Virus record (IMG/VR): IMGVR_UViG_3300027969_000100
Span: 1 to 63,719 of that record
DNA from: a virus
Lineage: Duplodnaviria > Caudoviricetes
Direction: 5' to 3' (one strand)
Length of the DNA: 63,719 bases
Part shown: in pieces, positions 22,452-55,404 of the stretch
Layout: each line of letters starts with the position of its first letter
Numbering within the stretch: the first letter of the stretch is position 1
The notes under the pieces: generated by a model
What the model was told of the DNA's origin: nothing
Database searches by the model: none
The model's input: the letters and a program-made list of their open reading frames with translations, nothing else
Made by a program: the position numbers and the translations under genes

Positions 22452-25400
22452 ATGGAAGAACAACTATTAAAAGATTACGTAGCAACATACTTAAATCCTA
22501 AGTATAATGGTGATTGGGATTTAGTTAATTCAAAGTTCCCTGAGTTATCTGGACTTGACAAGCAATTGTTAAAAGACTATGTAGCAACGTATACAAATCC
22601 AAAGTATAATGGAGATTGGGATGTGGTAAACTCAAAATTCCCAGAGTTATTTCCAGCAGGTAAGTCTGGTGCAGAAAGTCCTATGGCTATTCAGACTGCA
22701 CAAGAACAGCCAGTAAAAAAAAAAGATACGGCATCACCATTTGTGGATGGTGGTTCGGAGCTTACAAGATTTGATCCTGCAAGTGGGCAGGTTGTACAGG
22801 AGACTCCTGCGTTCACTCAGCCTAAGCCTGAAGTAAAGATACCTGAGCAGAAGCTACCTGCACGTACTGAGTTTCAGTTCCAGCCAGGAAAGCCTTTGCC
22901 TGAGCAGAAGACAGCACCACTTCCAAAGTTTGTTGAGGAGCAGTTATCTGCTGTTAAACCAGAGCTTATAGGAAAGACTGAAGAGAATGTTGTTCCACAA
23001 CTTAAGTATCAGTTTGGTCCACTAGGATTTAAGTTCGAGCAGACTAGAGCTGGAGATTACATGATGGCTACATCTCCATCGGGAGAGTCTATTTATATTT
23101 CTTTAGACGTTGTAGATAACAAGGATAGGGAGACAGAAGCCAATAAGCTAAACGCATTTTTAAGAAAGGGTGCCACCACTGTAAAGAACTTATCTACTTT
23201 ACAGAAGCAGTACACAGATGCCAACAAGAAGATTGTGTCTCAGAAGGAACTTGATGAGTCTCTGGCAAGCATCAATGCAGAGGAAACCAAAATCATGGCA
23301 AGGAATGCTGAGTTTGTTAAGGCACAGAATAAACTAGAGGCAGAGAAAGCACAACTAGAAAGTGTTCCTGTACAGCAAAGAAACAATCCAGCTTACATTG
23401 CTAGAGTAAATGACTTTATTGAAAGAGCTGACCAGTTCAGTGGTGAGTTCCAGACATTCGCAAAAGATGCTGAAGACTTATCAAAGAGAGGACAGCAATT
23501 AAATAAGTCTATAGGTAAGTATACTGAGATGAAGGCTGAGCAAGGCACATGGTATGGTGCTGCTTTAAATGCCTTTGCCAATAAGTCTTATTATGAAATG
23601 GCTAAAGGTTTATCCGGTGTAGCTGTTGACTTTATAGGTGAGGTGATTTCAGCTACTGGATTACCAATAATGAGTCCAGAAAACTATGAGAAAACATTCA
23701 TCGAGCAAGCCAAGAAAGAAGGAATAAATGTTACTGAAGGTGAGGACTTTATATCATTGGCTAATAAGCTTGACCCTGAAACTCTTGCTAAGATAGAGAA
23801 TAGAGTTATAGATGCAGGGAAGAAAAGTGTAAAGGGAGAAGTTGTAGGTGGTTTAGATAAGGCTTCTAAGATGATTATGGAATCGTCAGGGGTTTCTCCT
23901 GAGTACTATAGATCAATTGAAGAAACATTTGTTGGAGGTGCCTTACTCGGTGCGTTGACATCTATACCAGCTATGGCAGGTGGCCCAGTAACACGAACAA
24001 TATTAATGGGATCTCAAGTACTCTCAGGACTAGATACTGAGATGGCTAACAATCCTGAGTTCGCAGATATATCAGAAAATGAAAAGCTATTAGTTAAGGC
24101 TCCAATTGCAGTAGCTGTTGGTGTACTAGAAAGCCTTGGTCTAAGTAACTTATTAAAGCAGAAGGGCTTCTTAAATGGCATAGTGCTTAAGGCACTTGGT
24201 AAGGTAGGGACAGGTGCAAGCTATAAGACATTTGGTGAGGTAATTAAGAATGAGGTAGAGAGTGCTGTAGACAGAGGAGCATTGACTCTAGGTGCTGGCT
24301 TCCTAGCTGAAGCTGAAACAGGAGCACTACAGGAAGTAGCTGACATAGGTATTAAAGAAATCTATAACATGGCTAAGGAGAAGGAGATGTTTGATACTCC
24401 TGATTCTGTAGTTAAGTTTATAGAACAGGTAGGCAAGGCTGGTTTACAGGAAGGTATTGGTGCAGGTGTACTTAGTGTACCCGGATCTGTATCTGCTGCC
24501 TATACTGGCAAGGGATTCTTAGGCATGGATGATGCTCAGTTTGCTATGTTTGAAAAGATGGCAAATGACTCGAACATTCAGAAGGGATTTGTTGCTAGGC
24601 TCAAGTCCAGAATTAATAACGGTGAGATTACTGCTGCTGAAGGCAAGGACATACTTAATAATTACAGAAATTCTGTAGGCTTATTCAACTCATTGCCTGA
24701 GAACCTTGACATGCAAGGGAAGAAGGAGGCAATGAACTTGCTTAAGGAGAAGCGTGACTTGGAACGTCAGATTGATGGCAAGGATCAGGCATTAACTACT
24801 CCTCAGCGTAATAGAGTAAACGAAATAAATCAACAACTTACTAAACTATCAGAAGATGCCATTCAAGAGCAAGCAGCAGGTCAAGTACCTGTACAGCCAG
24901 GAGCCACAGTTAGCCAAGAAGTGGCGCAAGGAGAACCCCAAGCAGAACCTCAAGGCGTTGCCGAAGAAGGTCAAGTCCAAGAAGTAGCACCTGTATCTCC
25001 AGCTGTATCTCCAGCTATATCTCCTATTCAAGAAGCAACTCCACAAGTAGACTTTACTGAAGCTGAAGTAAATGCGCTTTCAGATTTATTAGATAAGAGC
25101 GAGTCTGAAGGTAAGAATCTTCCTGAGGTATTCCAGCTAGAGACTACCACAGATAATGAAGGAAAGAAGCAGGTACTTGTAGAGTCAGCTACTAAGCTAA
25201 TGGAGACTGTTAGTGATGACTTATCATCTACTTCAAAGCCTACTAATGCTCCAACTATGGAGACAACCCCAATAGTTATAACTGAGAATACAGAACTTAC
25301 CAATAAGGTATCAAGATTCCCACTTGTTGATCTCATAAAGAAGAAGATAAATCTTGTTATGGCTGATCAATTAAAGGTAGGGGATGGGTTTATGGGGGGT

Positions 25401-28400
25401 CCATTGTTCCCACTTATTGATGGGATTTTTGGTAAGGCAGCATGGGCATCTATAAATCTAGATGCTGCTAGAAAAATTGTAAGGGGTGCTATAAATGGTG
25501 ACTATAGTGTGGTGTTTAATATGAATCCAACTGCTGTTGATTCAAACACTGCATTTATGGATACCTTTATTAAGAAATTAAATGAGGCTGGCATAAAAGA
25601 AAATGTGCTTGTTGAATTAAAATCTTATGTGAAGGACAAGAAGTTCGGAAAGAAGACAGATCAGATAAGAAAGATTGCTGAGACATCAAATACAATTGAT
25701 GAGTTCTCTGAAAAATTATCTGAACTAGATGTCGATACCATATCTGATTTCGTAAAGAAAATTATTCCTTCAAAGAGTGTGGTTGCAGAGACCGCAATCG
25801 GAAAGATTCTACAGGCTCAGAACATTACTCAAGAAGATATTAGAGGTGAGATATCAGAGCAGCTTGCTAAGGACTTGCCTATGGGGGCAATGACTATGGT
25901 CCTTAAGATCACAGATGCAAATGGTAATCCTGTTACTGAAAAGAATATTGACGATGCGATTATAACTCCTGAGCAGCAGAAGGCTGAAGGAATCCCATCA
26001 CATAGGAATTATCCTTTCTATGTTAGAGGTACAGCCCTTGGTATACTAGATAGCACAGTTCCTTTTTGGAATATGTCAAAGGCTGCAATGAGTACTATCA
26101 ATGCAAAGGTAGCCAAGGTAATAAGAAACAATGAGGGTAAGGCATACAGTGCTTCACAGGCTCGTGCTGCTGCTATGAGGTCCGCTTCAATGAAGGCTTC
26201 TAAAGCATTCACTACTCAGGCTCCTACTAAATCTACTTATCAACAATTTATAGAGAGGTTGTCAAAGGCAATACCTTCTGTTGAGGTAGTGACATCTCAA
26301 AAACAATTCGATGATCTTCTTACAAACTTGAATGCTAAGTCCTTGGCTACAAAGAACCAGAAGATTTATGGAGCAGTTCTAGATGGTAAGCTATATCTTA
26401 ATCCATCTCTTGAGAATTTTAACACACCTATCCACGAGTTCGCTCACGTTTGGACCAATACTATTAAGGAACTATCCCCTGAGATTTATCAAAAGGGTAT
26501 AGAACTTATTAAAGGATCTGACTATGTTTCTCAGATAGAAGCAAGTAAAGACTACAAGCGTATTACTGATAAGATGAAAAAGGATGGTGCAACTGATCAA
26601 GAGATAAGCGATTATATTCTTGAGGAGGCACTGGCTACAGCTATTGGAGATAAGGGTGAGTCATTTGCTACAGCTGCTCAGCAGAGAAACTTTAAGAACT
26701 GGCTTAATGATTTATTTGCATTCATTAAAAAGCTTACCGGTATATCAAAGTTAACTCCAGAGCAGATACAGAATATAAGCTTGGATGATTTCTTGAATAG
26801 TGTTGTAGTTGACCTATTGTCTGAGAACAAGTTATTTAAAAATGCAGAGGTAAATAATCTGAGCAATCAGCTACAGCTCATGGCGAAGCCTGACTTGAAG
26901 GCAGATGATATTGTAAAGATTGGACTTGCTAATGGGTTTTCTGTTCCAGCTATAAAGGAGCTGCTAAGCAGAAGAGGATTCACTGAGCAGGCTATCAATG
27001 AAGCATTGGGCAAGCAGACACCTGCCGCTAAGAAGGTTGAGGTAACTGAGGAGTTTGCTCCAGGGTATGACCGAATGATTGGTCAGCTTGAGGGTGTGGT
27101 TGAGAAGTCACTGAAGCGTGGTACCACTCAGGCTAAAGCAATGGAGAATGCCATCAACTATCTCCAGGGTACTAAGGTATACGAGAACGCTACTGATGTA
27201 CAGCGTGAGACTATGGTCCGTGATGTGAACAAGCGATTCAAGAAGCGTGAGAAGCGTGCTCCTAGTGCTAAGAAAGTATTGGGACAGAAGAAAGATGTTG
27301 TAACAATCACCGTTGATTTAGCTAAGGAGAGAGATAGAATAATTAAGGAACAGATAAAGCAAGCTAAGGAAGTTACTGGTGACCTTAACGAGAAGAGAGC
27401 AGCATTGGCTAATTCAATACGTTTGTTTGAAGATGGAGGAGTTATAACGACTGCTCAAACTAAGACCATAGTAAATAGAATTAGTAAGGTCAATCTAAAT
27501 AATCCTATCATGGTTGATAGGTTGCTTGCATACATTGAGAAGGTATTCGACAATGCCAACTATGCAGCTGACATGACTGAGCTAAGAAAGCTACAACGTC
27601 AGGCAAGAACCAAGAAGCATACATCAATGAAGGACTTTGTTGATAGGTTTACTTTTATTAATCCAGAGCTTATCCCACTTGATAGACTACAAGACTACAA
27701 GGAAGCACTTGACTTCTTGAATAATAGAACTCCTTCTTATGCTAGGATGAATGAAATGCTTCCTGAGATTGAATCTTACGAATTATCTGAAAAGTTTGAT
27801 TCTGTTAAGACTATAGATGACATTAAAGAAAAATACAAAGGAATAAGATTAAACAAAGTAGAAAGTGTTGAAGAATACGTTGCACTTATAAAGGATATAA
27901 ACTCAATAAAGAGAAAGTTATATCAGTTACTTGAGAATGAAGTAATCAGTCAACAGGAATATGATATTCAGGTTACTATTATTGGTGAAGACCAATTAAA
28001 AGTAGAAAATAATTATGCAGTACAAATTACTAAAATAAAGAAGGACTTAATCGCTGAGATAAATAAGCAGCGACCAAAGACTAACCCTGAATTTACTAAG
28101 GAAGAAAATGATTTAATCAAAGAATACCTAGAGCTTAACGATGCTGACCTTGAGAGTCTATCTCCTGAGGACCTGTTTGTACTAAATGATTTGCTTGAGA
28201 ACGTAAGCAATGGAGAGATTGACTACTATAGATTTAAGAACGTAGTGTCAAAGGCAGCCAATAACAAGGCTGGTGTTGAGGTTGGTAAGCAGTTAAAAAC
28301 GTCTAAGTTAAGTCTTGGGTCAGCAGAATTGAGAAAGAAAATGGCTCAGTTTGAAAGCTCATTCTGGGAGGGGCTTCTTGGTTTAGGTAGAGCTACATCA

Positions 28401-30800
28401 GGTCCACTACAGAAGTTTATTATCTCTCCTTTTAACAGAGCAATTGGATCATACGAAAAGTTTTTAAGAGATGGATACAATGATTTCTTAAAGCTTAAGA
28501 AGAAGTATAAGATTGATGACTCTAAGTTGTTTAAAAGCACCAAGCAAATGCAAAAGATAGGTATGCTAACCACATACCTTCAAGAGTACATGGCTCAGTT
28601 TGACCCTAAGAACAAAGGCATTAAGGATATTGGTAAACGTGATTGGTTCAAGGAAATCTTAGCTACCGAAACCATGAGAGATGACTACTCACCTGAAGAG
28701 CTTAAGATTATTGAAGAGATTCATGAGAGTCTACCTAAAGATAAGGATGGTAATGTAGATCCTAAGGCGGTATACGATAGCTACATAGCTAACGATGGTA
28801 AGTTCTTTACCAAGAATGAGAAGGGATTCTTTGATGCAGTAATGGAGTGGAAGAAGAATAACTCAACATCAAAGCAGAAGGCAGCTAATGAGATGAGTGG
28901 TAATGCATTCAAGGAGATTCCTTTCCATATGCTTAGATCAAGATACTCTGGACAAACTTCACAAATTACTCCATCAACATCTGGTGATAATGGTATGATC
29001 CGAATCAAGGCTGGTACCGGTAAGGAGAGAGCAAGCGAAGCAGTAGGTGCAATCAATACAAACTTTGAGAAGCTATTCATCAAAGGACTTGAGCAAACTG
29101 GTAGAGATTACTTCTTGTCTAAGACACTGAAGGATATCAACAACGTGTTGGCATCTGCTAAAAAAGAACTTAATGGAGATAAGGACCCTCTAGTTAAGGC
29201 TATATCTTATACGCTATCTGATGCATTGGCTTACGAGTTCAGTGATACAGCTAGTCAGAACATATTGAAGAGATTGGTTCAGGCAAGAGCTGCCATGACA
29301 TTGTTCGATCCTATCAGAGCAGGAGTTGAATTTACATCTACTCTACTATCCTTTGGTCTAAGAGCCAGAACATTATCTGGATACAAGAATTTATTCGGTA
29401 GTCAGGGAGAGATGAGAAATCTACTTGAGTTCACGGATAGCCCATTAAGACTACGTCAGAATATCAACAATGCAATTGATATCAATGATGGAAGGATTGA
29501 ACCACAGGGTATGCTTATGAAGTGGACTAGCTTCCTATCTGGTCTACCAGAAAGAACGATGATGGTTACATCATGGATGCCAACATTCACTAGTGAGTTT
29601 CAGAATATCACAAAGGAGAAGTTCGACATGAAGAAGTTTAATGATAGCGAAGCATACAGAGAGAAGTATGGTAAGGCAATCAAAGAAGCTTCTGCTGTGG
29701 CTGATGCTCAGACTGAGAAGATTGTTGGTCCAACTACAAAGGCAGGACAGAGAAGAGACATTGTAATTTTCCCTGGTAAAACTGTTGGTAGAGACACGGT
29801 GTCTGGCCAGATCCTTGGCTTCTTTAGTAACTATCCTTATCGAGAAGTAACTGAATTTGTAAATGGATTTAAGGAAGCAGGTGAGGTATTAAAGAAGGCT
29901 GATACAGTAGAAGCAATCAGTCAGTTGCAAAAGCCACTGGGTATTGCATTGAACGTAGCTGCTTATGGATTCTTGTCATCAGTAGTATACGCCTCCAGAT
30001 TAATTCTTCTTGGAGACGATGATGAAGAGGAGAGAGGCAACAAGTTACTTGAGGAGTTGATGACTGCTAAAGGATTCATTGAGGAGACAGCGGCAAATGC
30101 AGCAGCATTAGCGGCAAGTAAGTACGCAGGTGGAGGTAGAGCTATTCTACAAGTACTAGGTACACTTGGGATTATGATGACTGACAATGAGGAAACAAAG
30201 GCTACAATTAAAAAGATGCTAAAGGGAAGTGTGTATGTAGATCCATTACCAACTCAGAAGTTAACTGGATATGGTACCGCTGACAAAGTAAATACAGCAA
30301 TACTAAAATACATCCCTCAGTTTGTGGTTCTTAGTAATGTAATTATAGATGGCTTAGGTGGATTGAATGAAATCAAAGCTATATACGACAAGGTAGAAAG
30401 CAAAGGAGTGAATGCACTAACAGAAGATGAGGAGCTAAGAGTACTAGCATTGAGCGTTATGTTTACTGCAACTCAATTGTACTTAAACTATAAGGGATCA
30501 TCGTTGCCATCTTATAACACCTTGAAGGCAGGAATGAAAACAGTAAAGGAGGAAGCAGGAGTTGCTGATATATCTGCTGGAAAAGTACCTGCTAAAAAGA
30601 AATCATCTAGTGGTGGTGGAGGCAGCAGAGCCAAGACAATGAACAAGACTGACCTGAAGAAATATAACCGTGAGTTATATGATCAGATGTATGGTAAGGG
30701 ATCTGCTACTTATGAGATAGAGCAGGAGATAAAAGCCTTCGAGAAGGAACAACGAGAGTTTAAAAAGGATATCAAGGATAGAGTTTTTGGTGGGGACTAA
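22452..30800 (+). CDS. Giant (2782 aa) internal virion/polyvalent protein with zincin-like metallopeptidase motif
   Basis: LYLNP...TPIHEFAHVW...EEALATAIG; last gene of the structural operon; N-terminal 34-aa tandem repeat. Confidence 0.7.
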   Translation: MEEQLLKDYVATYLNPKYNGDWDLVNSKFPELSGLDKQLLKDYVATYTNPKYNGDWDVVNSKFPELFPAGKSGAESPMAIQTAQEQPVKKKDTASPFVDGGSELTRFDPASGQVVQETPAFTQPKPEVKIPEQKLPARTEFQFQPGKPLPEQKTAPLPKFVEEQLSAVKPELIGKTEENVVPQLKYQFGPLGFKFEQTRAGDYMMATSPSGESIYISLDVVDNKDRETEANKLNAFLRKGATTVKNLSTLQKQYTDANKKIVSQKELDESLASINAEETKIMARNAEFVKAQNKLEAEKAQLESVPVQQRNNPAYIARVNDFIERADQFSGEFQTFAKDAEDLSKRGQQLNKSIGKYTEMKAEQGTWYGAALNAFANKSYYEMAKGLSGVAVDFIGEVISATGLPIMSPENYEKTFIEQAKKEGINVTEGEDFISLANKLDPETLAKIENRVIDAGKKSVKGEVVGGLDKASKMIMESSGVSPEYYRSIEETFVGGALLGALTSIPAMAGGPVTRTILMGSQVLSGLDTEMANNPEFADISENEKLLVKAPIAVAVGVLESLGLSNLLKQKGFLNGIVLKALGKVGTGASYKTFGEVIKNEVESAVDRGALTLGAGFLAEAETGALQEVADIGIKEIYNMAKEKEMFDTPDSVVKFIEQVGKAGLQEGIGAGVLSVPGSVSAAYTGKGFLGMDDAQFAMFEKMANDSNIQKGFVARLKSRINNGEITAAEGKDILNNYRNSVGLFNSLPENLDMQGKKEAMNLLKEKRDLERQIDGKDQALTTPQRNRVNEINQQLTKLSEDAIQEQAAGQVPVQPGATVSQEVAQGEPQAEPQGVAEEGQVQEVAPVSPAVSPAISPIQEATPQVDFTEAEVNALSDLLDKSESEGKNLPEVFQLETTTDNEGKKQVLVESATKLMETVSDDLSSTSKPTNAPTMETTPIVITENTELTNKVSRFPLVDLIKKKINLVMADQLKVGDGFMGGPLFPLIDGIFGKAAWASINLDAARKIVRGAINGDYSVVFNMNPTAVDSNTAFMDTFIKKLNEAGIKENVLVELKSYVKDKKFGKKTDQIRKIAETSNTIDEFSEKLSELDVDTISDFVKKIIPSKSVVAETAIGKILQAQNITQEDIRGEISEQLAKDLPMGAMTMVLKITDANGNPVTEKNIDDAIITPEQQKAEGIPSHRNYPFYVRGTALGILDSTVPFWNMSKAAMSTINAKVAKVIRNNEGKAYSASQARAAAMRSASMKASKAFTTQAPTKSTYQQFIERLSKAIPSVEVVTSQKQFDDLLTNLNAKSLATKNQKIYGAVLDGKLYLNPSLENFNTPIHEFAHVWTNTIKELSPEIYQKGIELIKGSDYVSQIEASKDYKRITDKMKKDGATDQEISDYILEEALATAIGDKGESFATAAQQRNFKNWLNDLFAFIKKLTGISKLTPEQIQNISLDDFLNSVVVDLLSENKLFKNAEVNNLSNQLQLMAKPDLKADDIVKIGLANGFSVPAIKELLSRRGFTEQAINEALGKQTPAAKKVEVTEEFAPGYDRMIGQLEGVVEKSLKRGTTQAKAMENAINYLQGTKVYENATDVQRETMVRDVNKRFKKREKRAPSAKKVLGQKKDVVTITVDLAKERDRIIKEQIKQAKEVTGDLNEKRAALANSIRLFEDGGVITTAQTKTIVNRISKVNLNNPIMVDRLLAYIEKVFDNANYAADMTELRKLQRQARTKKHTSMKDFVDRFTFINPELIPLDRLQDYKEALDFLNNRTPSYARMNEMLPEIESYELSEKFDSVKTIDDIKEKYKGIRLNKVESVEEYVALIKDINSIKRKLYQLLENEVISQQEYDIQVTIIGEDQLKVENNYAVQITKIKKDLIAEINKQRPKTNPEFTKEENDLIKEYLELNDADLESLSPEDLFVLNDLLENVSNGEIDYYRFKNVVSKAANNKAGVEVGKQLKTSKLSLGSAELRKKMAQFESSFWEGLLGLGRATSGPLQKFIISPFNRAIGSYEKFLRDGYNDFLKLKKKYKIDDSKLFKSTKQMQKIGMLTTYLQEYMAQFDPKNKGIKDIGKRDWFKEILATETMRDDYSPEELKIIEEIHESLPKDKDGNVDPKAVYDSYIANDGKFFTKNEKGFFDAVMEWKKNNSTSKQKAANEMSGNAFKEIPFHMLRSRYSGQTSQITPSTSGDNGMIRIKAGTGKERASEAVGAINTNFEKLFIKGLEQTGRDYFLSKTLKDINNVLASAKKELNGDKDPLVKAISYTLSDALAYEFSDTASQNILKRLVQARAAMTLFDPIRAGVEFTSTLLSFGLRARTLSGYKNLFGSQGEMRNLLEFTDSPLRLRQNINNAIDINDGRIEPQGMLMKWTSFLSGLPERTMMVTSWMPTFTSEFQNITKEKFDMKKFNDSEAYREKYGKAIKEASAVADAQTEKIVGPTTKAGQRRDIVIFPGKTVGRDTVSGQILGFFSNYPYREVTEFVNGFKEAGEVLKKADTVEAISQLQKPLGIALNVAAYGFLSSVVYASRLILLGDDDEEERGNKLLEELMTAKGFIEETAANAAALAASKYAGGGRAILQVLGTLGIMMTDNEETKATIKKMLKGSVYVDPLPTQKLTGYGTADKVNTAILKYIPQFVVLSNVIIDGLGGLNEIKAIYDKVESKGVNALTEDEELRVLALSVMFTATQLYLNYKGSSLPSYNTLKAGMKTVKEEAGVADISAGKVPAKKKSSSGGGGSRAKTMNKTDLKKYNRELYDQMYGKGSATYEIEQEIKAFEKEQREFKKDIKDRVFGGD

Positions 30801-43748: not shown

Positions 43749-44495
43749 TCATATTTCTTCAATGCTTCTGATTACAAATCCACTAGTATCTTTACTAGCT
43801 TGTCCCTTAGCTTTCAATGCCACAATACTATTCGGCATATCCAGAAATCTTAGGTCTGTTTCATCGCCATCGATGACATTCACTTCTCTATTGTTATACA
43901 CTATCTTACCCATCTTTACCAATTGTTCGTGTAACTCCTTAGAGAATACCATTGCGACATTCTTACCCTCGTTTAATACATTCCGAGAGTACTCAATATT
44001 TAACTTGGTCTCTGCCCTAGAGAATGTCAAGTAGTAGTTACCAATGTTATTGGTCAATACTCTACGAGGATTCTTTGTATAGTCATAAAATTGCACATTT
44101 GGAAACGCCTCGAAGATGTTTGAATAGTATCTATCCTCTAATTCTACCTTGATGTTCTCGAATGGTAGGTCTGATGTACCATTCAGTCGGATCACCAGAG
44201 AATTGCCATACTTTTTTTGCAGTTTTACAATCTCTTTGTAGATGTTGACCATGAACTCCTTTCGATTCTCTAAGAATTCCAATGTCTTGTTAATCCTTGC
44301 CGATTGGACATTTGTCATCGCTCCTCTGCCGGCAGTATACAAACAAACTTCTATACATCCATCTGTTGCATCTCCGCAGAGATTCACCTTGCCATTCCCT
44401 TGTTTATGAGGAGCTAGGTACATGATTCCCGTAAAGTAACCTAGCTTTTGTCCCTTACTAGTTTTTGCATCTGCATTTACTGATAGTAGTCCCAT
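43749..44495 (-). CDS. GP88-family protein
   Basis: Start MGLLSVNADAK; Cys cluster NLC...GCIEVCL, IRLNGTSD, QFYDYTK, LTFSR, DGDETDLRFLD. Confidence 0.75.
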   Translation of the reverse strand: MGLLSVNADAKTSKGQKLGYFTGIMYLAPHKQGNGKVNLCGDATDGCIEVCLYTAGRGAMTNVQSARINKTLEFLENRKEFMVNIYKEIVKLQKKYGNSLVIRLNGTSDLPFENIKVELEDRYYSNIFEAFPNVQFYDYTKNPRRVLTNNIGNYYLTFSRAETKLNIEYSRNVLNEGKNVAMVFSKELHEQLVKMGKIVYNNREVNVIDGDETDLRFLDMPNSIVALKAKGQASKDTSGFVIRSIEEI

Positions 44496-44517
44496 AGTTT
44501 TTTTTTTTGGTTTAAGA

Positions 44518-45659
44518 TTATATATTATTTTGTGAGCAAAAGTTATCATAGTATGCGTCCTCGTTTGCTTTGATGTGAGCGAATGTCTGGTTTGCTTCCT
44601 TCCTATCCTTGTATGCTTTCGATGATTCGCAGTATGCTTTGCCATCGTAGTAGATGGTCTCACCTTTGCCAATTACCTTGCCTGTCTCGGCACAAGTACT
44701 TTTGAATCTTGATGTGATAAATCTTCCCATAGTTTTATAGTAGTTTAAGTCCAAGCATATATCCAAGTATAAATATTGGTAGCAATGCCACAATTGTGTA
44801 GATGATTAATCCTAGCGTTCTCATTTTAATAGGTGTTTGATATGTAGAATGATTTCTCCAATTGGATTCCATACATGATGCCGAGTACGATAATTACTGC
44901 CATAATCCCTATGGCAAGTAGTGTTCCTTTTGTGTTGTCTTTCATCCTTTTATTAGTTCAATTGCAAATTCATATGCTTCCTCCCATGTCAATGGATTCC
45001 ATCCATTACCTTCAGCATCCTCATCTGAGTACTCTCCGTTAGGATCATTACGGCATAGCCATTTAATTAATTCTTCTCTGGTGTATTTTTCGAAATCTTC
45101 CATTATTTTGATAGGTTTTGATTTGGTTTATGGTTAAGACCAATCCGTAGATTGGTTTCGACTATTTAAGTCTCGTCAGTTAACCTATAACTAAATTTTT
45201 GTTTATGCCATCGGCATCTGTAGACTCGATTTCGGCTGCTATGTCTAGCCATTTTTGAGCATCCTCTTTTAAAGATTCTACCATATACCAGTAGTCTCTT
45301 TCTTTTGCTACTTCGGCTTTTGCTTTGTAGTGCTTGTAAAGTGCGAAGGCTTCGAATCTTGTGATTTCAACGATGTTTGCTTGAGTTGTCATTTGTTTTT
45401 TGGTTTATGAATAAATAATCTTTTCAATATTAGTAACTTCTCTTTTGGGCAAGTAGTAACATGCATCCAAGTATTGGTCAAATACATTCTCACATTTTCT
45501 ATCCAATTGAATGCCTTTTTTCTCCTCATCATTGTCATATGCTCTGTCTCTCTCACTACTTAATGCATTGTACTTCTCAAGGTATTTTACTGCCTTGTTT
45601 ACCATCCTCTGATTTTTCTTTGTGATTGCTACTATCATTTCTCTTTTTGTTTTGGTCAT
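44518..45659 (-). CDS. First leftward early genes (including 44942-45103, 45180-45392, 45405-45659)
   Basis: Short co-oriented ORFs starting at the divergent non-coding region. Confidence 0.55.
45132..45185 (-). ncRNA. Type I hammerhead ribozyme
   Basis: Minus strand GGUUAA-CUGACGA-GACU-UAAAU-AGUC-GAAA-CCAAUC-UACG-GAUUGG-UC-UUAACC: full core, three perfect stems, GUC cleavage triplet. Confidence 0.9.
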
Positions 45660-46170
45660 AGATATCCACCTCAGCCCTTATGGCTGTTTTTGGCGTTGTG
45701 CTTATTGCATGTACAAAGGATGTTCTTTTCTAGTTCATATCCTAATACTCGTTCAATTTATTTTCAATATTTATTAAACTTTTATGTAAGTGATTGATAA
45801 TCAGCGAGATTAATTTTGTTATTGGTGTTATATATTATTTATCCTTAGAATCTATGGGACTTGGGTAAAGCAAAGTATCCTCTTATCCCTTGTGGATATC
45901 TTGTGGATATCTTTTGTTGACTACGAGTCAAGTTTATCTGGAAGAAAGGTAGCTAGGTAGGTAGCTAGGTAGGGATGCAAGCTAGGGCATAGGAGTTCGT
46001 ATATCCTAGGCACTACTACTTGCAGTGAGCAGATAGGAAAAGCCAAAAAATCCATGGCAAGCCGATTGACTGCCTACCCCCCATGCCGAAAAAAAAATCG
46101 TTTCCGCTTTGGGCCGGCTGTCGTAATTTGGTGGTATTACCCAAACAGTCCTATCATCTAAAGTATTATA
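45660..46170. promoter_or_regulatory. Divergent non-coding control region (candidate origin or genome terminus)
   Basis: AT-rich tract, IHF-consensus match TAAGTGATTGATA at 45787, tandem TTGTGGATATC x2, AGGTAGCT repeats, C6/A9 tracts. Confidence 0.55.
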
Positions 46171-46177
46171 TTTGTGC

Positions 46178-46375
46178 ATGATTGATGGACTAACAATGAA
46201 GAACGGTCGTTTGATAAATGATCGTCCTAACAGCGTAACAGGAATTCAAAAGGCTATCGATATTAAGAGAACCTTGAAGAAAGCAGAGAAGCTTGAGATG
46301 TATTCTGAAGCTGTGTCACTAGGTATTCAGAGAGCAGGCAATGACGATAACATCAGAGGGATGTTCTTGAAGTAG
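46178..46375 (+). CDS. Hypothetical protein
   Basis: ORF directly after TATATTTG and followed by a terminator. Confidence 0.6.
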   Translation: MIDGLTMKNGRLINDRPNSVTGIQKAIDIKRTLKKAEKLEMYSEAVSLGIQRAGNDDNIRGMFLK

Positions 46376-46396
46376 TAGCTTTTTGAGTTTATTTGA

Positions 46397-46425
46397 GAGA
46401 GGGATTTTATGGTCCCTCTTTTTTT
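46397..46425 (+). terminator. Intrinsic terminator
   Basis: AGAGGGA...TCCCTCT followed by a T run. Confidence 0.7.
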
Positions 46426-46476
46426 GTACCCAACATTCCAGATAAACTGTCATGGACTGTACGAAATTATGTCGTG

Positions 46477-46582
46477 TAACTAACTGATATCTAGAGTCCT
46501 GTCGATTATGTTAATTTTTAAAATGAATTGTAGTGAGAAAAATATAAAAGAGAGAGATTAATATATATATATATATAGGGAA
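46477..46582. repeat. Origin-like element, copy 2
   Basis: Same three-part architecture and orientation as 36491-36595. Confidence 0.8.
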
Positions 46583-46655
46583 GAAGAAGTTTGTCATTCA
46601 ATTCGATATTCCATTTTTCATTATCTTTGTCTGAACAAACTAAACAAACAAAAAA

Positions 46656-46946
46656 ATGGAGAAGTTTTTAAGTATCCCAGTAACGAACGAGCAGAGACAA
46701 TTGGTTTCTGCTACAGGTATTGTGTTGATTGAGCAAGAGTCAACAACAGCTGTACATATTCACTACAAGTCAAGCACAGGAACTGATGTTGTGACAATTA
46801 CCCATGCGGCAGCTCCAGCAGGTAGCGAAGTTATGCGTGATGCTATTCAAGACGCTGTTGTCAGAGCATTGGGTACATCATGGACGTATGTAGCATTTGA
46901 GGTTCAAAACCTACCGTTTGCTGTATCAGGTATTACAATTGCTTAA
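46656..46946 (+). CDS. Hypothetical protein (own promoter motif and terminator)
   Basis: 96-aa ORF with A-rich leader. Confidence 0.7.
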   Translation: MEKFLSIPVTNEQRQLVSATGIVLIEQESTTAVHIHYKSSTGTDVVTITHAAAPAGSEVMRDAIQDAVVRALGTSWTYVAFEVQNLPFAVSGITIA

Positions 46947-46967
46947 TATTCCTGAGCTTATTGAAAT

Positions 46968-46996
46968 GGCCATTCTTCGGGATGGCTTTTTTTTTT
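46968..46996 (+). terminator. Intrinsic terminator with UUCG tetraloop
   Basis: GCCATTC-TTCG-GGATGGC followed by T10. Confidence 0.85.
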
Positions 46997-47035
46997 GTAA
47001 AAATTATTTTATAGATTTGGTAAAATTTAATTCAA

Positions 47036-48637
47036 ATGGAACCTAAAGATTTATTTTTAGCCCAGGAGGGCAGACTAAAGTTAATTTCTGGCATCAAGAA
47101 GATTGCCGGAGCGGTCAAGAGTACGTTGGGGCCATATGGCAACACGGTACTAATTGAGAGTCCTAATCACACGCATGGTATTACTGTAACTAAAGATGGG
47201 GTGACTGTCGCTAAGGCTGTTGACCTACTTGACCCTGTGGAGAACCTTGCGGTTAAGATGATGAAGGAGGCGGCTGATAGAACGGCTACTGCTGCTGGTG
47301 ATGGCACTACTACTGCCATAGTGTTGACAGAGGGGTTGGTACTTGGATGGTTGGAGCATATTGGCACTGAGCAGTTAAATAATACTGAGGTGCTACGCAA
47401 CATATCTGAGCTGAGCACTAAGGTGATTGAGGGGTTGAAGAAGAAGAGTAAGAAGGTCACTAACTCAATGCTGCTTGACGTGGCAACTATCTCTGCGAAC
47501 AATGACAGTCACATAGGTCGAATCATTGCTGATGTGTACAAGGAGGTGGGGAAGAATGGCATAGTAACGGTGGAGCGAAGCCAGACTGCTGACACATATG
47601 CTGAGACCACTAGGGGGTTAAAGATTGACAGGGGGTACACAAGCCCACTGTTCATCAACGATCAGAGTAGGGACGAGTGCGTATTTGAGGATGTACTGGT
47701 GCTGGTGGCTGACATTGAGATAAGTAATGTCTTGCAGATTGAGAACGTGTTGAAGCCAATCATACAGGAGGGGAAGAAGCTACTGATCGTATCTCCATGC
47801 CACGTGAACGTGGTGAATACCTTGGCGGCAAACGTGATGAAGAGTAACCTAAAGATGTGCGTGGTTCAACCACCGAGCTTCGGGTACCGACAGCATGAGC
47901 TGATGCAGGACCTGGCGGTGAGTGTTGGGGCCACATACTTCAGTGAGAAGACCGGGGATGACCTGAGTCAGATCACTATTGCTGACCTAGGGCATGCAGC
48001 CAGAGTGGTGGTTGGCAAGGACAAGACCATAATCCTCAAGTCAGACCTCAAGCTCGACACTGCAAAGGTCGAGGAGCGAGTGGCACAGCTATGGCAGGCA
48101 CATAAGATTGCTAAGAAGAAGGTTGACAAGGACCACCTGTTGGAGCGAATCGCCTCCCTTACGGGAGGGATAGGTGTGATATACGTAGGTGGGCAGACTG
48201 ACCTAGAGCAGAAGGAGCTGTACGACCGTGTTGACGATGCGGTGTGTGCGGTACGATCCGCTCTGGAGGAGGGCATACTACCAGGTGCAGGCAAGGCACT
48301 GCTTGACGAGAGTGCTGTGATCAGAAGAGACCTATTATTTAACTTAAGCAAGGAGTACAATGCTGCTGTTGAGATACTATCCAATGCGATGATGGCACCA
48401 TTCCAGCAGATCCTAGCTAACGCTGGCCTCAAGCCAAGTGACGTATACAAGGAGGCGATGCCTGTTGGGCACGGGTACAACCTAAAGACGGGGCAGATGG
48501 GTGACCTAGTACAGATGGGTGTGATTGACCCACTAAAGGTGACACGCAGTGCGTTACAGAACGCTGTGAGTGTAGCGACAACTATATTGAGTACTAACGC
48601 CATCATAACTATGGCACGATCATACGAGACTAGATAA
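47036..48637 (+). CDS. groEL: Chaperonin GroEL (Cpn60)
   Basis: TLGPYG, VTKDGVTVAK, AGDGTTTA, DRGYTSP, GILPGAG, GVIDPLKVTRSALQNAVSVA. Confidence 0.95.
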   Translation: MEPKDLFLAQEGRLKLISGIKKIAGAVKSTLGPYGNTVLIESPNHTHGITVTKDGVTVAKAVDLLDPVENLAVKMMKEAADRTATAAGDGTTTAIVLTEGLVLGWLEHIGTEQLNNTEVLRNISELSTKVIEGLKKKSKKVTNSMLLDVATISANNDSHIGRIIADVYKEVGKNGIVTVERSQTADTYAETTRGLKIDRGYTSPLFINDQSRDECVFEDVLVLVADIEISNVLQIENVLKPIIQEGKKLLIVSPCHVNVVNTLAANVMKSNLKMCVVQPPSFGYRQHELMQDLAVSVGATYFSEKTGDDLSQITIADLGHAARVVVGKDKTIILKSDLKLDTAKVEERVAQLWQAHKIAKKKVDKDHLLERIASLTGGIGVIYVGGQTDLEQKELYDRVDDAVCAVRSALEEGILPGAGKALLDESAVIRRDLLFNLSKEYNAAVEILSNAMMAPFQQILANAGLKPSDVYKEAMPVGHGYNLKTGQMGDLVQMGVIDPLKVTRSALQNAVSVATTILSTNAIITMARSYETR

Positions 48638-54434: not shown

Positions 54435-54655
54435 AAAAATTATTTGATTGGTTAAAAGGCTTCTTGTCTGAAAATGGAGAAGCATCTTCTAAAAGATTTG
54501 TTGGAGTATTTGCTGCAATAGCTTTGTGCTATACGCTTTATGCCAACCATGATTCGGCTAACGAACCATCAGAAGCTTTAGTTTATTCGGTTGCTGCTTT
54601 ATCTGCTGCTGCTTTAGGTATTACGGCAGCTGAGAAGATATTCAAGAAGGAATGA
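54431..54655 (+). CDS. Putative holin (2 TM)
   Basis: 74 aa, SSKRF followed by two hydrophobic helices and a charged C-terminus; upstream of the endolysin. Confidence 0.6.
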   Translation: MKKLFDWLKGFLSENGEASSKRFVGVFAAIALCYTLYANHDSANEPSEALVYSVAALSAAALGITAAEKIFKKE

Positions 54656-55404
54656 AGAACTTAAGCAAGGAGGAACTACTAAGTCGAATGGAGGCAATTA
54701 ATCGTAGCAATGCGATTATTTACTTTGACTTAAATGGTTTTATCCTTGGAGTAAACGCTATCTTCTTAGAGGCTATGGGCTTTGCTGAAGATGAGCATGA
54801 TAAGCTGATTGGAAAGCACCATTCGATTTTTGTCAGCTACGAATATTCTAAGTCTGAAGACTATACAAAATTCTGGGAAATGCTTCGGGCTGGAAAATTT
54901 TACGAAGGTGAATTTGAAAGAAGAAAGATAGATGGTAGACCTATTTATTTGCAGGCTACATACAATCCTATCTTTGACGAAAGCGGTACTATCACTAAGA
55001 TAATGAAGATAGCTACCGACATTAGCCAAACTATTGTAAGTAAAAATAAGATTGGCGAACTATCTAAAAGTTTGCAGGCTGAGTTAGAAAACTCAAATAA
55101 GTTAAGGGCAGCAATTGAGATTGAAAAGGATGCAGCTGTTAATGACTTAGATGCTACCATTAAGAAAAGTCAAAACGAGCTCATTAAAGTAATTGTAAAG
55201 TCTGCCTTGTTCGTAATTATGAGTGTTGGATTTATTACAACGATAATGTACTCGTTTGCTATTCTATCGGATAAGGATACGCAAATCATTGGATCTACTT
55301 GGTCAAATATGTTTTCGGTTTTATTGACGAATGCCTTCTCTATTGTCGGCACAATCATGGGAATTAAGTACGCAACTTCAGAAGATAAAAAAAATAAGGA
55401 ATGA
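54652..55404 (+). CDS. PAS/PAC domain-coiled coil-2TM membrane protein
   Basis: AINRSNAIIYFDLNG...GKHHSIFV...FWEMLRAG...GEFERRK...YLQATYNPIFDESG...KIATDIS matches chemoreceptor-type PAS; two C-terminal hydrophobic helices. Confidence 0.85.
   Translation: MKNLSKEELLSRMEAINRSNAIIYFDLNGFILGVNAIFLEAMGFAEDEHDKLIGKHHSIFVSYEYSKSEDYTKFWEMLRAGKFYEGEFERRKIDGRPIYLQATYNPIFDESGTITKIMKIATDISQTIVSKNKIGELSKSLQAELENSNKLRAAIEIEKDAAVNDLDATIKKSQNELIKVIVKSALFVIMSVGFITTIMYSFAILSDKDTQIIGSTWSNMFSVLLTNAFSIVGTIMGIKYATSEDKKNKE

Follow-up and report, generated by a model that had tools for sequence, protein, structure and literature searches.

An uncultured freshwater phage with a probable type I hammerhead ribozyme in a gap between small genes, and the subfamily to which it points

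The locus and its setting

The window, the whole stretch of DNA that was analysed, is a complete viral record of 63,719 nt from an uncultured freshwater phage. It raises the question whether two small co-directional genes of its minus strand, 76 nt apart, have a genuine self-cleaving ribozyme in the gap and, if so, what such an element would do to the mRNA that carries it. The initial annotation had named the element a canonical hammerhead, and this identity is strongly supported by the core, the fold and compensatory changes in all three stems. With a probability of about 0.88, the element is a genuine type I hammerhead that most likely cuts a multigene mRNA after C45138 and thereby likely uncouples two cistrons.

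The 70-aa protein encoded upstream of the gap had 158 pattern matches in viral contigs, none of which was confirmed as a relative. The 53-aa ORF downstream has seven metagenomic clusters at 81-96% identity and is therefore regarded as a real gene. In the minus-strand block, small ORFs precede genes for a helicase, a primase, an exonuclease and a methyltransferase, a content suggesting that the ribozyme lies in an early operon. The region is assumed to be transcribed as one unit. The sigma-70 consensus scan found 11 sites in the window against 13.3 in shuffles, and the Bacteroidota -7 motif TANNTTTG was not enriched (69 sites, 60.4 expected) and is absent from the minus strand of the 44000-47000 region. 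One lake-water metatranscriptome run contained 11% of the sampled words and yielded, over 44300-46300, two identical 151-nt contigs (45184-45334 and 45343-45493). Contigs of this kind cannot show ends, these two neither cross nor abut the cleavage site, and DNA carry-over is possible, which leaves them silent on both transcription and cleavage.

The terminase is 75% identical to that of the uncultured podovirus MW202828. Its identity to the terminases in 68 records of Flavobacterium phages is about 45%, and Cellulophaga, Tenacibaculum and Maribacter phages gave more distant matches. The phage is distantly related to Flavobacterium and Cellulophaga podophages. Because of these terminase matches and a leader without a Shine-Dalgarno-like tetramer, the host is likely a member of the Bacteroidota.

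Sequence and layout of the ribozyme

Read directly on the minus strand, positions 45185-45132 give GGUUAA-CUGACGA-GACU(UAAAU)AGUC-GAA-A-CCAAUC(UACG)GAUUGG-U-C/UUAACC, the slash marking the predicted cut (Table 1). The nucleotides that define the hammerhead core, C3 U4 G5 A6 N7 G8 A9, G12 A13 A14 and an H17 other than G, are present as CUGACGA, GAA and C17. Also the pairs next to the core are intact: U45137-A45180 (N1.1-N2.1), G45172-C45160 (N10.1-N11.1) and A45156-U45139 (A15.1-U16.1); the rejection criteria applied to these pairs are those of Perreault 2011 (PMC3088659). Stems I, II and III contain zero mismatches, and the open stem I together with loop-capped stems II and III forms the type I topology.

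The complete conserved core reported in the initial annotation was recovered on the minus strand at 45185-45132, as were its perfect stems I (6 bp) and II (4 bp), both free of mismatches, and the TAA of ORF 45180-45392 inside stem I. The cut it had predicted between 45138 and 45137 agrees with the position of C17, and the next start codon at 45103 does lie about 34 nt past that cut. Its perfect stem III with a UACG loop also stands, with the length amended from 6 to 7 bp when A15.1-U16.1 is counted.

Table 1. Coordinates of the ribozyme and neighbouring features in the window, and of related copies in other records.
Feature	Position	Strand	Remarks
Upstream ORF, 70 aa	45180..45392	-	no family match
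Unpaired A 5' of stem I	45186	-	A in 77 of 78 members with 6-bp stem I, among the matches listed
Stem I 5' strand GGUUAA, positions 2.6-2.1	45180..45185	-	holds TAA stop 45182-45180 of upstream ORF
Catalytic core C3-A9, CUGACGA	45173..45179	-	direct reading
Stem II GACU/AGUC, 4 bp, G10.1-C11.1	45160..45172	-	GACU 45172-45169, loop UAAAU 45168-45164, AGUC 45163-45160
Core G12 A13 A14	45157..45159	-	direct reading
Stem III, 7 bp, UACG tetraloop	45139..45156	-	A15.1 (45156)-U16.1 (45139) plus CCAAUC/GAUUGG
C17, predicted scissile bond 3' of C17 (45138/45137)	45138	-	direct reading
Stem I 3' strand UUAACC, 1.1-1.6	45132..45137	-	predicted 5'-OH end of downstream RNA
Unpaired A 3' of stem I	45131	-	A in 70 of 78 members, among the matches listed
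A-rich leader, ribozyme to next start codon	45104..45131	-	without Shine-Dalgarno-like tetramer
Downstream ORF, 53 aa	44942..45103	-	no Pfam or PHROG match
Elemovirus hammerhead gap	L210 1468-1575 (MT497017.1 17275-17382), also L212		antisense 35-aa call
L312 array	297, 665, 922, 1534, 1943		five copies
L313-L317 array			one 82.7-kb contig; five full copies and a partial one
L244 and L257 arrays			three copies each
L247 and L248 array			four copies

Folding and comparison with chance expectation

The minimum-free-energy fold of the isolated 54-nt RNA is exactly the hammerhead secondary structure (-14.9 kcal/mol). When 30-nt flanks are added on each side, the hammerhead-compatible fold lies 0.7 kcal/mol above the minimum, which then belongs to a competing fold that pairs coding sequence from upstream with stem I and the core. 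The 81-nt context of the ribozyme has a folding z-score of -2.67, and its minimum fold pairs 45194-45188 with 45181-45175, sequestering UUAA and C3-A6.

A strict descriptor (stem I at least 6 bp, stem II at least 4, stem III at least 6, full core) matched a single site in the window and had no match in any of 300 simulations of it by a first-order Markov model. Covariance model R2, built from 42 other sequences with the window sequence excluded, recognised the ribozyme at 45187-45130 of the minus strand with 67.2 bits, at an E of roughly 5.5e-16; with filters off, the second-best site in the window reached 16.9 bits. Under the sister model R1, 79 unrelated phage loci amounting to about 480 kb contained no match at E up to 1. 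The window ribozyme is not a chance match.

With a looser descriptor (4/3/4 bp), two sites were found in the window against 0.03 expected. The second of these, at 54781-54889 on the plus strand, has stems of 4, 3 and 4 bp and long loops, lies inside ORF 54652-55404 and was not recognised by model R2; this hammerhead-like motif is probably due to chance.

Related sequences and covariation

Four other viral contigs matched the core plus stem II exactly. They represent two further sequence variants, and in both of these stems I and III differ wholly from those of the window, yet are perfectly complementary. A relaxed search, with N7 and loop II freed and the core and stem II fixed, gave at least 124 viral-contig stretches. 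Among the matches listed, 97 of the 112 distinct sites close into type I stems I and III, and the remaining 15 resemble other topologies. Stricter limits (stem I at least 5 bp, stem III at least 4 bp) left 85 distinct ribozymes among the matches listed.

Alignment A2 comprised the 43 shortest sequences among the matches listed, the window included. The paired positions pair in 99.8% of cells, against 25-39% with a slid partner column; as pairing was a condition of selection by the descriptor, this percentage is inflated, unlike the variety of pair types. Nine pairs change on both sides, namely all six of stem I and three of stem III, and the covariation score is 0.61 compared to 0.04-0.07 with slid partners. 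Except at N7, the CUGANGA core does not vary among the 43 sequences; the search pattern, however, had fixed it.

As also stem II was fixed in the pattern behind A2, a second search fixed only TTAA of stem I and the core. It gave at least 133 matches, and R2 matched 75 of the 80 loci among the matches listed. The resulting alignment A4 holds 91 R2 matches (the 75 loci among the matches listed, L237 and the window) and was fitted to the model, which inflates its pairing. Of the four pairs in stem II, three vary on both sides among these matches, pair 10.2-11.2 occurring as GC in 32, UA in 18, AU in 16 and CG in 14 of those listed. The covariation score of A4 is 0.56, and slid partners across A2 and A4 score 0.01-0.09. 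In stem III, three of the five modelled pairs change on both sides in A2 and likewise in A4. The initial annotation had regarded a lack of compensatory stem changes in related phages as grounds for rejection; such changes were found in all three stems. The window sequence has every defining feature of the class and is under selection for three helices.

In the prokaryotic search, which covered one genome each of 185,579 species, the core pattern matched 23 times, and 15 of these matches fit R2 at E up to 0.01; on account of these low numbers the subfamily is taken to be mainly phage-borne. The 79 loci of the neighbouring PF17338/phrog_1617 gene contained no hammerhead by descriptor or model, and a blastn search of 50,697 phage records with the surrounding 2.5 kb gave no match.

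Subfamily features and gene placement

Among the matches listed, stem I is exactly 6 bp long in 78 of the 85 members, and its distal pair is G-C in 72 of these 78. The 4-bp stem II is capped by a U-rich/A-rich pentaloop, which reads mostly UCAAU (20 members listed) or UUAAU (17). Position H17 is C in 75, A in nine and U in one of the 85 members listed, G being excluded by the descriptor. The window shares these features, with A45186, the distal pair G45185-C45132, A45131 and the loop UAAAU, and on this basis its ribozyme can be assigned to a widespread, mainly phage-borne subfamily.

The position of the upstream stop codon was surveyed in the 74 members, among the matches listed, with an ORF of at least 35 codons open 30 nt upstream. 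In 59 of them the stop ends within -4 to +10 of the first stem I nucleotide, and in 31 of these 59 it finishes on the conserved A (position -1) or on stem I's first G. Ten of the 74 ORFs end deeper in the ribozyme and five end 11-19 nt upstream of stem I. A stop at the 5' edge of stem I is therefore family-wide among the matches listed and not an accident of the window locus. The next start codon follows at a median of 27 nt past the predicted cleavage site, and ORFs of at least 60 aa span the ribozyme in sense in four and in antisense in 13 of the 85 members, both among the matches listed.

The flanking proteins are small and diverse, 75 of 150 being singletons among the matches listed. Comparison of 108 flanking proteins with PHROGs left almost all without a match or in families of unknown function; one is an anti-restriction protein. 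The ribozymes of the subfamily have no gene association. A Shine-Dalgarno-like tetramer is present in 40 of 64 leaders, and the subfamily is thus not confined to hosts that do without such sequences.

Comparison with curated models and published hammerheads

At gathering thresholds, Rfam 15 gave no match anywhere in the window. The check with Rfam hammerhead models suggested in the initial annotation therefore turned out negative, no model reaching its gathering score at the site. In E-value mode the best match was RF03152, RAGATH-1-hammerhead (27.8 bits against a gathering score of 56.3, E 0.006), and the best model of clan CL00010 was HH9 (13.8 bits against 52). The clan score lies so far under gathering that automated Rfam annotation would miss the subfamily. 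Rfam at gathering thresholds found nothing at 20 related loci either, and an E-value scan of the three closest loci gave nothing at E up to 0.05, indicating that no other ribozyme class replaces the hammerhead there. The element is a hammerhead by its defining features that the curated models do not capture.

The RAGATH-1 match spans the CUGAnGAGACUU...CGAAAC core and a long stem III. The 5' hairpin of the model has no counterpart in the window, its columns showing mismatches or gaps, and where the model has one pair for stem II the window has a regular 4-bp helix. Neither a 5' hairpin upstream of stem I nor a one-pair stem II, the marks of the RAGATH-1 variant, is thus present. With the CL00010 hammerhead models, both core and stem layout align.

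According to Perreault 2011 (PMC3088659), phage and prophage hammerheads have the same catalytic core and three-way junction as the window element, and they lie, as here, between co-directional phage genes of varying identity. That paper also describes multiple copies flanking single genes in some genomes, which resembles the arrays of the subfamily, and proposes the same role, the cutting of long phage transcripts into gene-length mRNAs. Its emphasis is on type II forms with pseudoknot contacts and on proximity to integrase genes in prophages, whereas the window element is type I without an evident pseudoknot and lies in an apparently lytic-type phage of 64 kb. Members of the subfamily may already be listed in the supplementary alignments of that paper. 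A pseudoknot candidate was considered by eye and rejected: upstream AUUUA is complementary to loop II UAAAU in the window, and L083 and L084 have no such complement.

Extended type I hammerheads of the Schistosoma type, in which an internal loop of stem I contacts loop II, share the type I topology. Such a tertiary contact gives fast cleavage at low Mg2+, and the introduction of PMC3088659 states that it speeds natural hammerheads. The fixed helix lengths in the subfamily (6 bp in stem I, 4 bp in stem II), its conserved unpaired purines beyond stem I and its conserved loop II are what a tertiary contact would lead one to expect, although the putative contact sequences differ from those of the Schistosoma type, being A/A flanks and a U-Y-A-A-U loop. 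The fixed helices and conserved unpaired purines would thus fit a stem I-loop II contact in the subfamily.

Distribution in related phages and arrays

The closest complete genomes, G001, G002 and MW202828, contain no copy of the ribozyme; in G001 and G002 the neighbouring gene is 88% identical to that of the window. As the three closest complete genomes do without a copy, this type of phage does not need the element. Segment 45714-44936, which includes the ribozyme and its flanking ORFs, is replaced by unrelated DNA in the closest relatives, and relatives without the segment share the flanking DNA at 75-86% identity.

The cultured Flavobacterium phage vB_FspP_elemoA_7-9A (genus Elemovirus) carries one copy, scoring 56.6 bits, in an intergenic gap of 150 nt; the genes of the surrounding array are small and lie on the same strand. 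Its record has a 35-aa antisense 'hypothetical protein' annotated across the gap, which is probably a spurious call. An unannotated ORF of 21 codons in Elemovirus stops at a TAG that finishes on stem I's first G. In the elemoD copy, which scores 40.4 bits, stem II contains two mismatches. Among the matches listed, the literature on Cellulophaga phages, Flavobacterium phages and elemo phages contained no mention of the hammerhead, and that on hammerhead ribozymes, phage genomes and early genes contained nothing relevant.

The metagenome contig L237 (1.4 kb), a close relative of the window, encodes a 53-aa protein 96% identical to that of the window, and two hammerheads (62-115 and 395-452) flank an 86-aa ORF in it. 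One of the copies has stems I and III of the window and a compensated stem II, GUCC/GGAC. Two extra ORFs lie between the window-like ribozyme and the 53-aa gene, and the second ribozyme lies upstream. Some viral contigs, among the matches listed, hold arrays of three to five hammerheads of the subfamily at spacings of 250-600 nt (Table 1). In these arrays nearly every small gene of the region is flanked by ribozymes with the same stem I sequence.

Proposed mechanism and alternative explanations

Hammerhead cleavage 3' of H17 leaves a 2',3'-cyclic phosphate and a 5'-OH. In the window, the ribozyme would be transcribed within a multigene mRNA, fold and, as the chemistry of the class suggests, cut itself after C45138. 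Owing to the type I topology nearly the whole ribozyme would stay on the upstream RNA, which would end about 40 nt past the stop codon with the stem II and III hairpins and the cyclic phosphate. The downstream RNA would begin with 5'-OH-UUAACC, followed by an unstructured, A-rich 34-nt leader before the next start codon. The likely outcome is that the two cistrons are uncoupled in stability, translation or both.

Because of this chemistry and the same-strand gene array, self-processing of a polycistronic mRNA into a downstream message with a 5'-OH is the expected behaviour of the window locus. The uncoupling of cistrons is a hypothesis already present in the literature and putative for this subfamily. 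As reported in Perreault 2011 (PMC3088659), prophage hammerheads self-cleave in polycistronic transcripts of about 2 kb in vitro and one triple arrangement cleaves in E. coli; also the gene-flanking position of phage hammerheads and the idea of mRNA processing were published there. A 2019 review (PMC6765202) describes the bacterial and phage roles of self-cleaving ribozymes as largely elusive.

Translation termination might gate the ribozyme, a ribosome at the stop codon covering stem I and the core so that ribosome traffic decides on folding; in detail, the last codons would form an alternative hairpin with stem I and the core, and cleavage would be coupled to upstream translation. The idea gains some weight from the family-wide stop placement (59 of the 74 members listed have it within -4 to +10 of where stem I begins, 31 of them using the conserved A or the first G) and from the competing hairpin in the window, where the 81-nt minimum fold hides UUAA and C3-A6. 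With 30-nt flanks, 17 of the 74 members listed have a hammerhead-compatible fold that exceeds the minimum by more than 3 kcal/mol, but in 25 of the 74 the hammerhead fold is the minimum even with flanks. Tight gene packing and the stop triplets inherent in the motif (UAG, UAA, and UGA in CUGA) could moreover place stops there without any regulation, and gating is considered unlikely. Doubtful to a similar degree is a wider scheme, in which the ribozyme would be a compact intercistronic module coupled to translation termination, with the stop built into the 5' edge of stem I and ribosome occupancy gating folding and cleavage. Under this scheme the type I layout would deliberately leave a hairpin-capped upstream mRNA and a bare 5'-OH leader downstream, and arrays of three to five copies with a common stem I sequence would dice the whole early transcript into single-gene RNAs, whose matching ends could even religate into circles.

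Another explanation is that the copies, being short repeats conserved within and between phage genomes, mainly mark or promote cassette junctions and serve as recombination points at which small early genes are gained and lost, with cleavage secondary or in the service of a selfish element. It draws on the lack of conservation of segment 45714-44936 in relatives that share the flanks at 75-86%, on the three complete relatives without a ribozyme, on the diversity of the flanking genes (75 of 150 singletons among the matches listed) and on the listed contigs with three to five copies and the same stem I. Likewise L237 shares the 53-aa gene and a near-identical ribozyme, yet two additional ORFs come between the two, and another ribozyme lies upstream. 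The catalytic nucleotides are, however, strictly conserved and the stems covary, which points to selection on RNA structure and not merely on DNA identity, and fifty nucleotides are short for homologous recombination; this explanation is quite improbable. Far less probable still is a chance or decayed, inactive hammerhead-like sequence: the site falls short of the Rfam gathering thresholds, close relatives are without the element and a second weak motif in the window is probably chance, but none of the 300 simulations gave a strict match, the core has no deviation from the consensus and no mispair adjoining it, the leave-one-out model R2 gives 67.2 bits, and the subfamily extras (6-bp stem I, flanking A residues, U...U pentaloop) are all present.

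With cleavage of a multigene mRNA by a type I hammerhead as the preferred reading, the window locus adds nothing new in kind, phage hammerheads being already known. It leads, however, to an abundant and well-defined type I subfamily, borne by phages, which escapes the current Rfam models and is annotated over by gene callers, as in the 35-aa example of elemoA_7-9A. As this phage and its host, Flavobacterium sp. BAL314, are cultured and the phage carries a member, function is directly testable, and the regular spacing of stop, ribozyme, leader and start offers a concrete hypothesis.

Other features of the genome

Three further genes were observed in the window. An ORF of 2782 aa (22452-30800, plus strand) lies among structural genes next to a virion protein of 1473 aa and had no PHROG match at E up to 0.001. 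A GroEL-type chaperonin (47036-48637, plus strand; phrog_5725, E 1.4e-132) is encoded just across the divergent region from the minus-strand block. On the minus strand, 43749-44672 encodes a 307-aa protein of Pfam family GP88 (PF17338, E 5e-39) and phrog_1617, which is widespread in viral contigs, with 203 relatives confirmed.
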